Shown here: positions 39,228-43,327 of the stretch, piece by piece | Layout: every line of letters starts with the position of its first letter | Numbering within the stretch: the first letter of the stretch is position 1 | Origin: a virus | Strand: one strand, 5' to 3' | Virus record (IMG/VR): IMGVR_UViG_3300046028_005277 | Length of the DNA: 64,000 bases | Program-made: the position numbers and the translations under genes | Notes under the pieces: model-generated | Database searches by the model: none | Told to the model about the DNA's origin: nothing | The model's input: the letters and a program-made list of their open reading frames with translations, nothing else

Positions 39228-40064
39228 ATGGCAGACAATAATTTCAAAGGAGGCCCAGGAGGGCGGCTGAAAAAGGAAGAGGAGAAGAACACTCTTTATG
39301 TGTCCAATCCTAATGATAAAAGATTGCAAGCATATAAAGACAGTTCTGCTCTTTATAATTATAGTGAACTGCAATCCAAAATTGAAGGAAAAACTCCAGC
39401 TCCACAATATTGGGGACCTAATAGCCGAAGTGGAAATTATTCTAAAATTACTCCAAGTTTAGAAGATAGGATAAAAAACTATAAATCTGATTGGGAAGAT
39501 GCAGAAAGAACTGGACATTCTCTTATTCCAAGGTATAAAAATTTGTCTAATTATACACAAAAACAGGAAGAACTATTCAAAACAACAAAAAAACTTGTTG
39601 ATACAAATAAAAATATAGGATATAATAATAATTTAAGTAGTCCAGATATTAGCCACAAGAAAATAAAACCTGTTGGTTATTATACTGGCACTGGCATAAA
39701 CGACATTTACAAAAAACCCGAACGGGAAGTAGTTTATCGGGAGCCTCCTCCAAAGCCTAAGCCACAAATAATTAGGCCAGTTGTTCGCCCTGTTGAACGC
39801 AATGCTCCCGAAAATATTGAACCCATTCAGCCTCGTCAAGCTACTTTTCCAGAAATAACCCAACCAGAAATAATTGCTCCTATAATGCGTCCTGTAAGCG
39901 TTCCAGAATCAACGCCTATGGAAGAGCCAATGATGGAAGAGGAGGTCGTTACAGAGCGTCCTGTGGTTCGTAAGCCACCAAGAGCCGTTATGCCTACAAG
40001 GCAAGGAGGCTGGGGTAATCAGCCGTTGCTAATGAAACTCTTTCCAAAAATTTACGAGAGATAA
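39228..40064 (+). CDS. Hypothetical protein (P-rich tail)
   Basis: 278 aa; YVSNPNDKRLQAYKDS motif. Confidence 0.55.
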   Translation: MADNNFKGGPGGRLKKEEEKNTLYVSNPNDKRLQAYKDSSALYNYSELQSKIEGKTPAPQYWGPNSRSGNYSKITPSLEDRIKNYKSDWEDAERTGHSLIPRYKNLSNYTQKQEELFKTTKKLVDTNKNIGYNNNLSSPDISHKKIKPVGYYTGTGINDIYKKPEREVVYREPPPKPKPQIIRPVVRPVERNAPENIEPIQPRQATFPEITQPEIIAPIMRPVSVPESTPMEEPMMEEEVVTERPVVRKPPRAVMPTRQGGWGNQPLLMKLFPKIYER

Positions 40065-40065
40065 T

Positions 40066-40098
40066 TTTGGAATTGTGAAATAACTTAGCCTATCTTTG
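40066..40098 (+). promoter_or_regulatory. Bacteroidota promoter
   Basis: TTTG-N21-TATCTTTG. Confidence 0.8.
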
Positions 40099-40102
40099 CA
40101 GA

Positions 40103-40208
40103 GCCGAAAGGCCGCTGGGTAGGAGCAGCGTTGTTTAAAACATTTCTTGTCCTTTGTCCGCTTAGTAAGGTCTCCTACCCTGAACGGCGAACAAAGGACA
40201 TTTTTTTT
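40103..40208 (+). ncRNA. Structured 5' leader RNA 1 (candidate kissing-loop attenuator)
   Basis: GCC-GAAA-GGC; CGCTG-[GGTAGGAG]-CAGCG; TGTCCTTTGT...ACAAAGGACA-T8 stem enclosing CTCCTACC. Confidence 0.6.
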
Positions 40209-40219
40209 AACAAAATTTT

Positions 40220-40435
40220 ATGAAGAATAATAACATCACAACAAAAATGTCTCACAACATTCACGATGAAAATGGAGAGTTAACTTATGAGATTGAAATG
40301 AGTAAAGAACATAAATCCATGTTTATTGAAGTTAAAATGCAGGATTGTTTTACTGGGCAGACAATGGTTGTAAAAATTCCATATTGGCCTATAAAAATGT
40401 TTATGAAGGCGGTGAACAAAATTCATTCAGCTTGA
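40220..40435 (+). CDS. Hypothetical protein
   Basis: 71 aa between the two leaders. Confidence 0.55.
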   Translation: MKNNNITTKMSHNIHDENGELTYEIEMSKEHKSMFIEVKMQDCFTGQTMVVKIPYWPIKMFMKAVNKIHSA

Positions 40436-40463
40436 TTTTTATTAAAAAAGTATAGTAAATTTG
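40431..40463 (+). promoter_or_regulatory. Bacteroidota promoter
   Basis: CTTG-N21-TAAATTTG. Confidence 0.7.
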
Positions 40464-40467
40464 TATT

Positions 40468-40596
40468 GGCGAAAGCCCCCGCTTGGAACCGGGAAAAAAT
40501 TATTATGGAAAATCTTAAACAAGCCCCTCTCGGCGTACCTGTGCAGTTTGTAATTTCTGCGTTCCAAACAGGGAAACCGAGAGGGGTTTTTGTTTT
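40468..40596 (+). ncRNA. Structured 5' leader RNA 2 (candidate kissing-loop attenuator)
   Basis: GGC-GAAA-GCC; CCCG-[CTTGGAAC]-CGGG; AAGCCCCTCTCGG...CCGAGAGGGGTTT stem enclosing GTTCCAA. Confidence 0.6.
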
Positions 40597-41385
40597 ATGA
40601 AAGAGCGTGATTCTATGATCTTGTACAGAAGTTTTTATGAGGCAATTATTGAATTGCCAGAAGCTAATCAGCTTGAAATTATGAAGGCCATATTTGAATA
40701 TGGATTCGATGGGGTTGAGCCAAAATTGTCTGGAATATCAAAAACAATATGGATTTTGATAAAGCCAAATATGGAAGCAAATCGAAGAAAGTGGGAGAAC
40801 GGATGCAAACCAAAACAGAAGCAAGTTGGAAGCAAAACAGAAGCAAACTTGGAGCAAGTTGAAAGCAAACCCGAAGGCAATGTATATGTAGATGTAGATG
40901 TAGAAGAAGATGTAGAAGAATACATTGGTAAAAAACCAAGCAAAAAGAAAGAAAGTAAAACATTTGTTGCTCCATCTTACGAAGAAGTGTTAGCCTACTT
41001 TGTTCAAAATGGTCAGCCGGAGGCTCAAGCCCGAAAGGCATTTGCTCATTACAACAATCACGATTGGATAGATAGCAAAGGTAACAAGGTGAAGAATTGG
41101 AAACAGAAGGTTCAGACTAATTGGTTTAAGGATGCTGATACCCCAGAGTTCAATCGTTCCATCAAAATGTCCAAGGAACAGGGTGATGCTCAAATGAACC
41201 GCTTTATTCAAAAAGGGTTCGATACACTTTCTGGAGAAGAGATTGAGTGGATTTATAATTGGCAACACAGAGATAGTTCGGCTTATATGCAATATCCAAA
41301 CGATATTCTACTAGCCGGAAGAACATCAAGGAAAACAAAGGGGCAGTGTGAAGCGGAAGATAGGAAAGCAGGATATGGATATTAA
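40597..41385 (+). CDS. Replication initiator (DUF6291-like N-terminus, lambda-O-like organisation)
   Basis: RDSMILYRSFYEAIIELP...IMKAIFEYGFDG; internal iterons; C-terminal PSYEEVLAYF...W.....KVKNWKQ. Confidence 0.75.
   Translation: MKERDSMILYRSFYEAIIELPEANQLEIMKAIFEYGFDGVEPKLSGISKTIWILIKPNMEANRRKWENGCKPKQKQVGSKTEANLEQVESKPEGNVYVDVDVEEDVEEYIGKKPSKKKESKTFVAPSYEEVLAYFVQNGQPEAQARKAFAHYNNHDWIDSKGNKVKNWKQKVQTNWFKDADTPEFNRSIKMSKEQGDAQMNRFIQKGFDTLSGEEIEWIYNWQHRDSSAYMQYPNDILLAGRTSRKTKGQCEAEDRKAGYGY
40811..40868 (+). repeat. Iteron array (probable origin of replication)
   Basis: AGCAA at 40820, 40831, 40842, 40853, 40864 (exact 11-bp period); CAAAACAGAAGCAA at 40811 and 40833. Confidence 0.7.
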
Positions 41386-43327
41386 GAAGTTTTCCGAAGT
41401 TCAGGCTATAGAGGGATTGCAGATAATTCCTGTTGATGGCAACAAAGTGCCAATTGCCAAAGATTGGCAGAAAGTAAAAACGCTATACGATTTTTCAAGG
41501 TTTCCAAGATTTGGCGGTATTGGTCTTGCTACCGGAAGCATCAGCGGAAATATTGAGGTAATAGACATTGACCAAAAGTATAGTCTTGATGGGAAACTTT
41601 TTGAAGAGTACAAAACTCTAATTGCAAAATCAAACAAGTCGCTTTTGTCAAAACTTGTTGTTAGTCGCACTCGTAGCGGTGGCTATCATTTTATTTACAA
41701 ATGTTCCGTGATTGAAGGGAATATTAAACTAGCAAGGCGTTTTACAACAGAAGAAGAAAGAGCCTCAAATTCTCACGATAAGGTGAGAGTTTTGATTGAG
41801 ACTCGTGGGGAAGGTGGTCAAATCGTGATTCCTCCAACGGAGGGTTATGAGATAATTTATGGATCTCTGTCTGATATTAAAACAATTTCTGTCGAAGAAA
41901 GGGATTTGTTATTTTTTTGTGCAAGGCAGTTAAACCAATATTTCCTTGTTGAACCGTCATTACCTCGGAGTCCAAAACCTCTGCCTTCCGCAGGGAGTGG
42001 CTTGTCTCCTGGGGATGACTATAACAACCGGGGAGATGTCTTGCAGTTGCTAGAATCTCATGGGTGGACTATTGTTGGCCAAAGCGGAAGTAAAATAAAT
42101 CTTAAAAGACCGGGCGATACCAATGCTGCAACTTCTGGGAACTACGATGAAGAGAAAGGTTGGTTTAGTGTATTTACTACATCAACAATATTTGAGCCTG
42201 AGAAAGCATACAGACCTTGGCATATTTTTACTTGGCTTGAATGCGATGGAGATTATGTTGAAGCTGCAAGAAAGCTAGGCGCAATGGGATATGGGGAGAA
42301 AAAGCCTGAGCCATCTGAGCAAATAATTAAACCATCATTTACTCACTCTGAGGGGAGAAAGCCGATTGATACGGAAACACTTTCGTTTCTTTCCAAAGAG
42401 GAAGATATTGATAATTATTTTCGCTCTGTTGTGGATGGGAGTTTTAAGATGGGTCTTCCAACTGGGTTTCCCGAATTGGATAAATACTTCCTTTTCAAAC
42501 AAGGCAATCTTGTGATTGTAAATGGCCATGCGAATGTTGGAAAAACCGTAGTTCTTTGGTATTTGTCTATGCTCACTGCTATTCAGCACAAATGGAAGTG
42601 GGTAATGCTTTGTTCAGAAAACTCGGCTGGAGGTATGAGAACAAAAATGGTTGAATATTATTGGAGCAGACCAATTCGTTTTCAATCTCCTGAACAACGG
42701 AAGGAAGCATACGAGTTTGTCAAAAACCATTTTTTCATCATTGACAATACCGAAAGCTATAATTACACTCAAGTTTTGGAAATGTTTTCTGCCGTTCATG
42801 CCAAGCACAATGTTCAAGGAGTTTTAATTGACACTTACAATAGTCTTGATGTTCCCGCCAAAGATGCTTACCAATACCATTATAGCACACTTAATGCTTT
42901 GCGTTATTGGGCAAAAGCAAACAAGGTAAGTGTTTATGTAAATGCCCACCCAGGAACAGGAGCAATGCGAATGAAAGATGCAGATGGATTTCCACTAGCT
43001 CCATTGATGGCTGATACGGAGCAGGGGAGTATGTTTGCTGCAAAAGCTGATGACTTTATTACCATCCATCGCAGACCTAATCATCCTGAAAAATGGAAAG
43101 AAACGGAAATTCATATCAGAAAAATTAAAGAAACCGAAACCGGTGGAAGACCTTCTCCATTTGAAGAGCCGTTTGTATTTCAGATGCATGATGGGTGTGG
43201 ATTTGCAACACTTCAAGGATTTAATCCTATTGCGAAATTGCGTAATACATCTCCCATTCCACAAGAAGAGCCAAAAAGTATAATAAATACAAAGTCTGGA
43301 TTTAATTTTGATGAAGCTCCATTCTGA
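41375..43327 (+). CDS. Bifunctional primase-polymerase fused to DnaB-like helicase
   Basis: GIGLATG...VIDID, TRSGGYHFIY (Prim-Pol); Walker A GHANVGKT, Walker B-like VLIDTYN. Confidence 0.85.
   Translation: MDIKKFSEVQAIEGLQIIPVDGNKVPIAKDWQKVKTLYDFSRFPRFGGIGLATGSISGNIEVIDIDQKYSLDGKLFEEYKTLIAKSNKSLLSKLVVSRTRSGGYHFIYKCSVIEGNIKLARRFTTEEERASNSHDKVRVLIETRGEGGQIVIPPTEGYEIIYGSLSDIKTISVEERDLLFFCARQLNQYFLVEPSLPRSPKPLPSAGSGLSPGDDYNNRGDVLQLLESHGWTIVGQSGSKINLKRPGDTNAATSGNYDEEKGWFSVFTTSTIFEPEKAYRPWHIFTWLECDGDYVEAARKLGAMGYGEKKPEPSEQIIKPSFTHSEGRKPIDTETLSFLSKEEDIDNYFRSVVDGSFKMGLPTGFPELDKYFLFKQGNLVIVNGHANVGKTVVLWYLSMLTAIQHKWKWVMLCSENSAGGMRTKMVEYYWSRPIRFQSPEQRKEAYEFVKNHFFIIDNTESYNYTQVLEMFSAVHAKHNVQGVLIDTYNSLDVPAKDAYQYHYSTLNALRYWAKANKVSVYVNAHPGTGAMRMKDADGFPLAPLMADTEQGSMFAAKADDFITIHRRPNHPEKWKETEIHIRKIKETETGGRPSPFEEPFVFQMHDGCGFATLQGFNPIAKLRNTSPIPQEEPKSIINTKSGFNFDEAPF

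Follow-up and report, generated by a model that had tools for sequence, protein, structure and literature searches.

A family of phage leader RNAs that pair a hairpin loop with a putative terminator ahead of replication genes

Introduction

What does a leader RNA do when it stands before the replication genes of a phage and carries, in one short hairpin loop, the complement of a segment inside its own terminator-like stem? The question arises at positions 40103–40208 of a 64,000-nucleotide stretch of viral DNA (IMG/VR record IMGVR_UViG_3300046028_005277), the whole of which we call the window. The original prediction, made from the letters of this stretch, proposed a kissing-loop or pseudoknot switch controlling read-through into the replication operon. 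Gene regulation in phages of Bacteroidota is almost unknown, and no Rfam regulatory RNA family of theirs resembles the leaders described here.

Results

Anatomy of the leader

Leader 1 lies on the plus strand and spans about 105 bases, with family members ranging from about 105 to 125 nt. It is preceded by a Bacteroidota-type promoter (40066–40098) consisting of a -33 TTTG (40066–69), a 21-nt spacer and a -7 box, TATCTTTG (40091–98), that ends 4 nt upstream of the first hairpin. This hairpin, P1 (40103–40112), reads GCC-GAAA-GGC, 3 bp capped by a GAAA tetraloop at the predicted transcript 5' end. P2 (40113–40130) is a 5-bp CGCTG/CAGCG stem (40113–17 with 40126–30) that presents the 8-nt loop L2 (40118–40125; RNA GGUAGGAG, DNA GGTAGGAG). 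A 17-nt A/U-rich single-stranded linker (40131–40147) connects P2 to a long hairpin of 53 nt (40148–40200). The outer helix of that hairpin, P3, has 10 bp (TGTCCTTTGT/ACAAAGGACA; 40148–57 with 40191–40200) and is directly abutted by a U8 (T8) run (40201–40208), together forming an intrinsic-terminator signature. The ATG of the first gene follows at 40220, 12 nt after the U-run.

Inside the long hairpin the structure differs from the one first proposed. Covariation supports P4, CGCU/GGCG (40159–62 with 40186–89), and P5, AGG/CCU (40168–70 with 40179–81), with an internal loop UAGUA/GAAC (40163–67 and 40182–85), and these replace the CCG/CGG helix plus mini hairpin of the original prediction. 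The rest of its map, namely promoter, P1, P2 with its loop, AT-rich spacer, 10-bp stem with T8, the segment CTCCTACC (40172–79) complementary to the P2 loop, and the ATG, was confirmed on the sequence at every coordinate.

The same promoter arrangement recurs across the family. Of 88 distinct upstream contexts, 79 have a -7 box of the form TAnnTTTG whose end falls 3–5 nt short of P1. Transcription is thus expected to start at P1, which lies 0–3 nt from the predicted transcript 5' end. Transcripts from upstream should enter the leader as well, since in 68 of 70 contexts the 3' end of a co-directional upstream ORF reaches the promoter or overlaps it.

Because P5 covaries, the target of the P2 loop is the 8-nt apical loop of the long hairpin, L5 (40171–78, UCUCCUAC), which makes the interaction a true loop–loop kiss. 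Its two halves are GUAGGAG in L2 (40119–40125) and CUCCUAC in L5 (40172–40178), giving a helix of 7 bp, possibly 8, with a duplex energy of -12.7 kcal/mol. We also considered whether the P2 and target regions might join in one longer alternative helix, and rejected this: the complementarity goes no further than the borders of the loops, as expected of a kiss. The minimum-free-energy fold of 40148–40200 alone is the covariation-supported structure (-21.9 kcal/mol), and leader 1 folds better than its shuffles (z = -2.85). The rough chance of a 7-nt complement within 100 nt is about 0.01. A custom scanner for the whole architecture required a small hairpin, a later stem of at least 8 bp abutting a T-run and, within that stem, a 7-nt complement of the hairpin's loop. 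In the 64-kb window only leader 1 and its paralogue satisfied it; five shuffles gave nothing.

Compensatory changes in the loop–loop helix

Homologues of the leader provided covariation in every part of this structure. When IMG/VR and JGI metagenomes were scanned with patterns, freshwater samples yielded many copies; those built like leader 1, which we call type 1, gave an alignment (A5) of 35 distinct sequences. One of the type 1 scans specified the conserved inner hairpin only and left P1, P2 and both loops free. Across the alignment, the nested structure and the kiss together have 97.6% of cells paired, with 13 pairs changed on both sides. None of 500 shuffles reached this pairing, and sliding the partners by 1–3 columns left 39–47% paired.

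The kissing helix is 99.6% paired over its 7 pairs in the 35 distinct sequences, and the pairing also holds in copies collected with both loops free in the search pattern. One pair is G-C in 22 sequences, C-G in 7 and A-U in 5, while its neighbour is A-U in 29, G-C in 5 and G-U in 1. Loop and target thus occur as GUAGGAG/CUCCUAC, GUAGCAG/CUGCUAC and GUAGAGG/CCUCUAC, and nature supplies a compensatory double in which L2 changes from GGUAGGAG to GGUAGCAG and L5 from CUCCUACC to CUGCUACC. The original prediction had staked its claim beforehand on loop and target covarying among homologues, and they do so in both leader types: at two positions in type 1, with three and two Watson–Crick pair types among the 35 copies, and in four of six pairs in the paralogue. 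Judged by this covariation, the pairing of the P2 loop with the terminator tip is real at the RNA level.

The remaining helices vary in the same compensatory manner. The P1 stem appears as GCC/GGC, GUC/GAC, GCU/AGC and GGC/GCC, always under a GAAA loop in type 1 (35 of 35) and under GAAA in 42 of 45 type 2 copies. Three of the five P2 pairs change on both sides, for example from CGCUG/CAGCG to CGGAG/CUCCG or CAGAG/CUCUG. P3, P4 and P5 carry compensatory changes too, with GAG/CUC, AGG/CCU and GGG/CCC found at P5. The presence of G-U pairs in P2, P3 and P4 of type 1 makes the structure specific to the plus-strand RNA. Between P2 and P3, the linker keeps a length of 15–18 nt in the 35 copies and varies in sequence.

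A few unpaired nucleotides are also fixed. The internal loop [U/G]AGUA/GAA[C/A] is present in all 35 type 1 copies, and an xGUA/GAA internal loop in 40 of 45 type 2 copies (40534–37 and 40573–76 in the window). AGUA/GAA matches the loop E or sarcin–ricin (bulged-G) consensus, a lead drawn from the letters, and this loop could be a protein-binding or tertiary-contact site. An unpaired C·A between P3 and P4 is likewise invariant.

Such features raise the idea of a riboswitch-like sensor, in which the compact fold of GNRA hairpin, kiss and loop-E-like loop would bind a small molecule or ion and so alter termination. In complexity the architecture matches small riboswitches; it has its terminator integrated and includes the invariant internal loop, GAAA loop and C·A just described. 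However, few unpaired nucleotides are conserved besides these common structural motifs, and the two paralogous types share the architecture with almost no common sequence in the putative core. The leaders show no association with metabolic genes, and no alternative expression-platform fold is visible in the alignment. We consider a sensor of this kind very unlikely.

One leader departs from the pairing rule. On the minus strand of contig L211 (1673–1787), P2 and the loop of the GUAGAGG variant sit on a CUCCUAC terminator tip, so that the kiss contains one A·C mismatch and one G·U, the sole exception among 81 distinct copies. This hybrid is probably a recombinant.

A paralogous leader with an upstream reading frame

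The window contains a second leader on the plus strand (40464–40600, or 40456–40596 when taken from its -7 box at 40456–63 to its U-run at 40587–96), which defines type 2. We collected 46 distinct type 2 copies, with 45 distinct copies in the alignment (A6). The window copy shares the plan of leader 1 in different letters: P1 (40468–77), P2 (40478–93) with loop CUUGGAAC, P3 (40524–33 with 40577–86), P4 (40538–42 with 40568–72) and P5 (40543–46 with 40557–60). Its target is GUUCCAA (40561–67); in type 2 the target takes the form of a 6–7-nt bulge in the 3' arm, separating P5 from P4. A covariance model built on type 1 matches this copy at E = 0.004, and on that match the two types are probably homologous.

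Type 2 repeats the kiss with greater variety. We set the structure by hand from single-sequence folds and then counted it on the alignment; RNAalifold run on a MAFFT alignment mis-predicted the inner helices, and its fold was not used. The pseudoknot is 100% paired in the 45 distinct copies, and each of its four covarying pairs takes two or three pair types. Twelve loop/target combinations occur among the 46 copies, each with 7–8 contiguous Watson–Crick pairs, and non-cognate combinations mostly have 0–5. The kissing helix varies about as much as the structural helix P4, so nothing indicates selection for new specificities.

Type 2 leaders also keep a reading frame open through the hairpin. 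In the window this upstream ORF (uORF) has 31 codons (40505–40600, plus strand) and a stop that overlaps the main start codon as ATGA. Its AUG lies 15–24 nt before P3 in all 46 copies, and 15–18 nt before it in all but one. The frame is open through the whole hairpin in every one of the 46 (for example L036:7427–7566), and each of the other two frames has at least one stop in nearly every copy. Which frame traverses the hairpin differs among type 2 subtypes and yields unrelated peptides; a uORF that is open in all copies despite unrelated peptides points to selection for a hairpin that is translated, whatever the peptide. In 22 of 46 copies the stop overlaps the main ATG, and in the rest it is at most 44 nt away. 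The main ATG follows the stem by 9–13 nt, and the P2–P3 linker of 27–33 nt is about one ribosome footprint long. Conserved uORF and ATGA overlap together imply that read-through mRNAs are translated. We looked for a conserved leader peptide in type 1 and rejected it, as frames and start codons are not conserved and several copies have no ORF at all.

Translational coupling would explain this arrangement no less well than termination control. The leader could be a translational or stability operator, whose hairpin and U-run shape ribosome access and mRNA decay, whose kiss promotes or blocks initiation in the manner of the pseudoknot that acts on repZ/repA in IncI-alpha and IncB plasmids, and whose P1 guards the 5' end from 5'-end-dependent RNases. 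The type 2 uORF with its stop over the main ATG, the short distance from stem to ATG and the footprint-sized linker all suit such an operator, as does the placement of P1 within 0–3 nt of the predicted 5' end. The regulated gene would be a replication initiator, as in the IncI-alpha/IncB plasmids (mechanism summarised in PMC8053102). But type 1 has no conserved uORF, and its first ATG stands about 8 to 35 nt from the stem and is often not occluded, a spread hard to reconcile with simple occlusion of the start codon. Translation control does not call for a U-run, yet one adjoins the stem in every copy. The target, moreover, is unpaired and sits in the apical loop some 40 nt ahead of the ATG, whereas the plasmids' target adjoins the ribosome-binding site. 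We therefore hold an operator of this type to be unlikely.

Replication genes behind the leaders

Both leaders of the window head replication genes, as had been proposed for the first. Behind leader 1 lies a 71-aa ORF (40220–40435, plus strand) for which no family was found and whose homologues stand behind type 1 leaders in L211 and L011. Behind the type 2 leader comes a DUF6291-family protein (40597–41385, plus strand), which may serve as replication initiator or replisome organiser; next in line is a primase-polymerase/DnaB-type helicase (41348–43327). Across the family, the first or second gene downstream is replication-initiator-like and the primase-helicase comes next. One protein cluster, the initiator-like one, accounts for 26 of 50 distinct first genes; its members combine interchangeable N-terminal DNA-binding domains (DUF6291, HTH_36/MarR-like winged helices) with a common C-terminal part, and one carries Phg_2220_C. 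The other first genes are 55–75-aa ORFs without a family and one HNH endonuclease, placed between leader and initiator. Neighbouring ORFs had no Pfam or PHROG match to antiterminators.

The region is mosaic in several respects. Initiator-like proteins carry at least four unrelated N-terminal DNA-binding domains (40597–41385; L019:6698–7594, L060:3093–3887, L201:1705–2520) before a common C-terminal part that reads ...AYF..NGQ..AQARKAFAHYNNHDW...NWKQK..TNWF. In one metagenome contig (L198:206–718) a 171-aa HNH endonuclease is the first gene behind a type 1 leader, which suggests that mobile nuclease genes insert there. When the window's 40220–40435 is compared with L001, L002 and L003 (alignment A1), both leaders are near-identical and the small ORF between them is swapped for unrelated sequences. 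With leaders kept and the intervening ORF replaced, the leaders look like conserved boundaries of a recombination hot spot.

The neighbouring initiator gene raises the prospect that the complementarity acts in DNA, as an inverted repeat GGTAGGAG ... CTCCTACC that serves a dimeric protein as operator or origin site, the RNA fold being incidental. Origins and autoregulatory operators often adjoin initiator genes, and compensatory changes would keep a DNA inverted repeat as well as an RNA helix. Yet the half-sites fall exactly in the loops of two independently covarying hairpins that contain G-U pairs, which are mismatches on the other strand, and a 46-bp spacing of 7–8-bp half-sites is atypical. 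Loop variants, furthermore, do not track the type of DNA-binding domain in the downstream initiator. For this lack of linkage and for the G-U pairs in the stems we rejected initiator-binding DNA repeats as the main reading; a DNA-level element seems highly improbable.

Distribution of the family

The leaders match no named RNA family, in agreement with the original prediction. A search of the whole window against Rfam 15 at gathering thresholds returned no match, and a permissive search of 39900–40800 (E up to 10) gave chance-level matches only; the highest-scoring of them, mir-3121, reached 21 bits where the gathering score is 108. No match to the C4 or IsrK families of Rfam was found. INPHARED phages held no similar DNA by megablast or blastn. 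Specific type 1 and type 2 patterns run on 185,579 reference genomes gave 0 matches and 10 chance matches, in high-GC genomes, with no genuine copy, and a loose P1 pattern on the reference genomes gave only noise among the matches listed.

Type 1 occurs once in each genome of about 67 kb and type 2 once or not at all, both at the replication module. The primase is distantly related to that of Cellulophaga phages and the promoters are of Bacteroidota type; the leaders are a family of uncultured freshwater Bacteroidota phages. By these comparisons of sequence and structure, the leader is an uncatalogued, new RNA family belonging to a kind, the promoter-proximal terminator leader, that is already known.

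One type 1 leader (G001, 190–304, on the contig of L003) lies 190 nt from the left end of a contig of 67,879 bp, which IMG/VR lists among those with direct terminal repeats. From that position, the replication module may start at a genome end.

The range of loop variants invites another thought, that the terminated RNA of about 105 nt is itself the product: a trans-acting phage small RNA that pairs, for example through its loop, with the complementary loop of nascent leaders of the same or a co-infecting phage, or pairs with host targets. It could be likened to the P4 CI RNA or P1/P7 c4 in feedback and immunity, or to StxS of the lambda-type PR'-tR' arrangement in its action on host targets. 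The loop complementarity could be intermolecular, as in phi29 pRNA, and covariation cannot separate cis from trans pairing. The RNA would have its own strong promoter and strong terminator, two leaders of one genome carry orthogonal loop pairs, and specificity variants are many (3 in type 1, 12 combinations in type 2). Terminated leaders have gained small-RNA function before (PMC7547250). However, with no copy in the 185,579 bacterial genomes, nothing points to lysogeny or to a setting of immunity, and in type 2 the kissing helix varies no more than the structural helix P4, which leaves no hint of diversifying selection for specificity. There is no room for a separate promoter between U-run and ATG, and the type 2 uORF shows that the leader belongs to an mRNA. 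A trans-acting product is, in our estimation, quite improbable.

A putative conditional terminator

We favour reading the leader as a promoter-proximal conditional terminator, or attenuator, placed before a replication-initiator gene with the kiss as its regulated part, and give this a probability of roughly 55%. Its start site, 3' ends and read-through are deduced from sequence. A GC-rich 10-bp stem stands immediately before the U-run, the sequence mark of an intrinsic (Rho-independent) terminator, and a U-rich run abuts P3 in 35 of 35 type 1 and 45 of 45 type 2 copies, so the terminator-like stem of the original prediction proved invariant. For type 1 in particular, we prefer a terminator because the invariant U-run adjoins the GC-rich stem and the start codon is variable and often distant.

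On this attenuator model, the long hairpin and U-run would act as an intrinsic terminator that stops most transcripts after about 105 nt, those from the leader's own promoter and those reading in from upstream alike. It would thereby set, or conditionally gate, transcription into the replication-initiator gene. The kiss closes the leader into a compact pseudoknotted fold and can form from the moment the apical loop has been transcribed, with about 22 nt of the terminator still to come. As the regulated or recognised part, the kissing fold may tune how fast and how completely the terminator forms.

How the kiss might bear on termination is constrained by what the alignment lacks. No alternative (antiterminator) pairing to the terminator arms is present in the alignment, and the linker sequence is not conserved. 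The kiss uses no terminator-stem nucleotides and so does not compete with P3. Of the original prediction, then, the kiss and the terminator signature are supported, and a switch is a hypothesis. The missing alternative pairing and the untouched stem leave no obvious mechanical link between kiss and termination and count against an attenuator, as do the prediction that the long-hairpin stem forms without the kiss and the tolerance of A·C and G·U in the L211 hybrid. Given the first two points, any effect of the kiss would have to be kinetic, steric or topological, or come from a surface that a factor recognises.

The input would differ between the two types. Type 1 might respond to a phage antiterminator, to RNA polymerase itself or to a small ligand. 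In type 2 the input would be translation of the leader ORF through the hairpin: a ribosome loaded on the linker would follow the polymerase and melt the hairpin, so that transcription does not terminate and ribosomes reach the overlapping main start, and if kiss and hairpin formed first, transcription would stop. This resembles coupling of the pyrBI type. Taken together, the leaders may represent an undescribed class of phage attenuator, in which an intramolecular kiss between a hairpin and the tip or bulge of a terminator is read by a factor or, in the uORF paralogue, by the first ribosome, and times or doses the initiator; we advance this as a tentative proposal, at somewhat under even odds.

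Comparison with known systems

Several known systems share single elements with these leaders. The P4 CI RNA (seqA/seqB/seqC) and P1/P7 c4, represented in Rfam by C4 and IsrK, are processed RNAs that act in trans in lysogens and satellites. Like them, the leaders place sense complementary segments, coupled in those systems to premature termination, in the leader of a phage replication (primase) operon and show specificity variants among relatives. Unlike them, the leaders have no Rfam match and no prophage copies, and both partners lie in loops of one compact fold. In the countertranscript-driven attenuation of pT181 and pIP501, and in the RNAI–RNAII kissing of ColE1, an antisense partner comes from the opposite strand. 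A 7-nt loop–loop kiss with a terminator or primer upstream of replication functions is common to these plasmids and the leaders, whereas both loops here are on one transcript. A search of the minus strand between 40000 and 40700 for the TAnnTTTG box, the one antisense-promoter motif sought, found none.

Lambda nut boxB and HK022 put are small hairpins right after early promoters, present as two paralogous copies and acting in terminator read-through. The leaders likewise have a small hairpin, with a GNRA loop that recalls the GNRA-like one of boxB, immediately downstream of the promoter, and a phage can carry two paralogues. Nothing here looks like boxA, an N-like protein or the two-stem structure of put, and neither nut nor put is known to contain the terminator or a kiss, unlike the leaders.

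The lambdoid PR' – 6S RNA – tR' arrangement, released by the antiterminator Q and the source of StxS in Stx phages (PMC7547250), is close in layout. There as here, a promoter is followed within 100–200 nt by an intrinsic terminator, or its sequence signature, ahead of a phage operon. Its default product is a short terminated leader RNA, of which the counterpart here is predicted from sequence. It differs in that the lambda leader is not known to have a loop–loop kiss, and that the leaders here stand before a replication operon and not late genes, in a Bacteroidota host and from a different type of promoter.

In the IncI-alpha/IncB plasmids (ColIb-P9 repY-repZ, pMU720 repB-repA), a leader peptide and a pseudoknot control repZ or repA, as summarised in PMC8053102. 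There too, the leader of an initiator gene has a hairpin loop that pairs with a distal segment of a hairpin further downstream, and type 2 further shares a leader ORF that runs through the hairpin and ends at the initiator start codon. Type 1 differs in lacking a leader ORF coupled to the rep gene. Here the target lies unpaired in an apical loop or a bulge, well away from the start codon, in contrast to the plasmid segment sequestered beside the ribosome-binding site, and the U-run terminator signature present here is not known from the plasmid leaders. Hallmarks of the family are a further GAAA hairpin at the 5' end, the AGUA/GAA loop and a paralogue that combines a uORF with a bulge target.

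Discussion

The family is well resolved, with at least 10 independent compensatory events in a long-range loop–loop helix, and two paralogous leader types in one genome have a clear target in the replication initiator. These leaders offer a testable model for coupling a kissing complex to an intrinsic terminator. Type 2 adds a model for keeping a leader ORF of arbitrary peptide open through a terminator, and the orthogonal loop pairs could serve as RNA-control parts in Bacteroidota.
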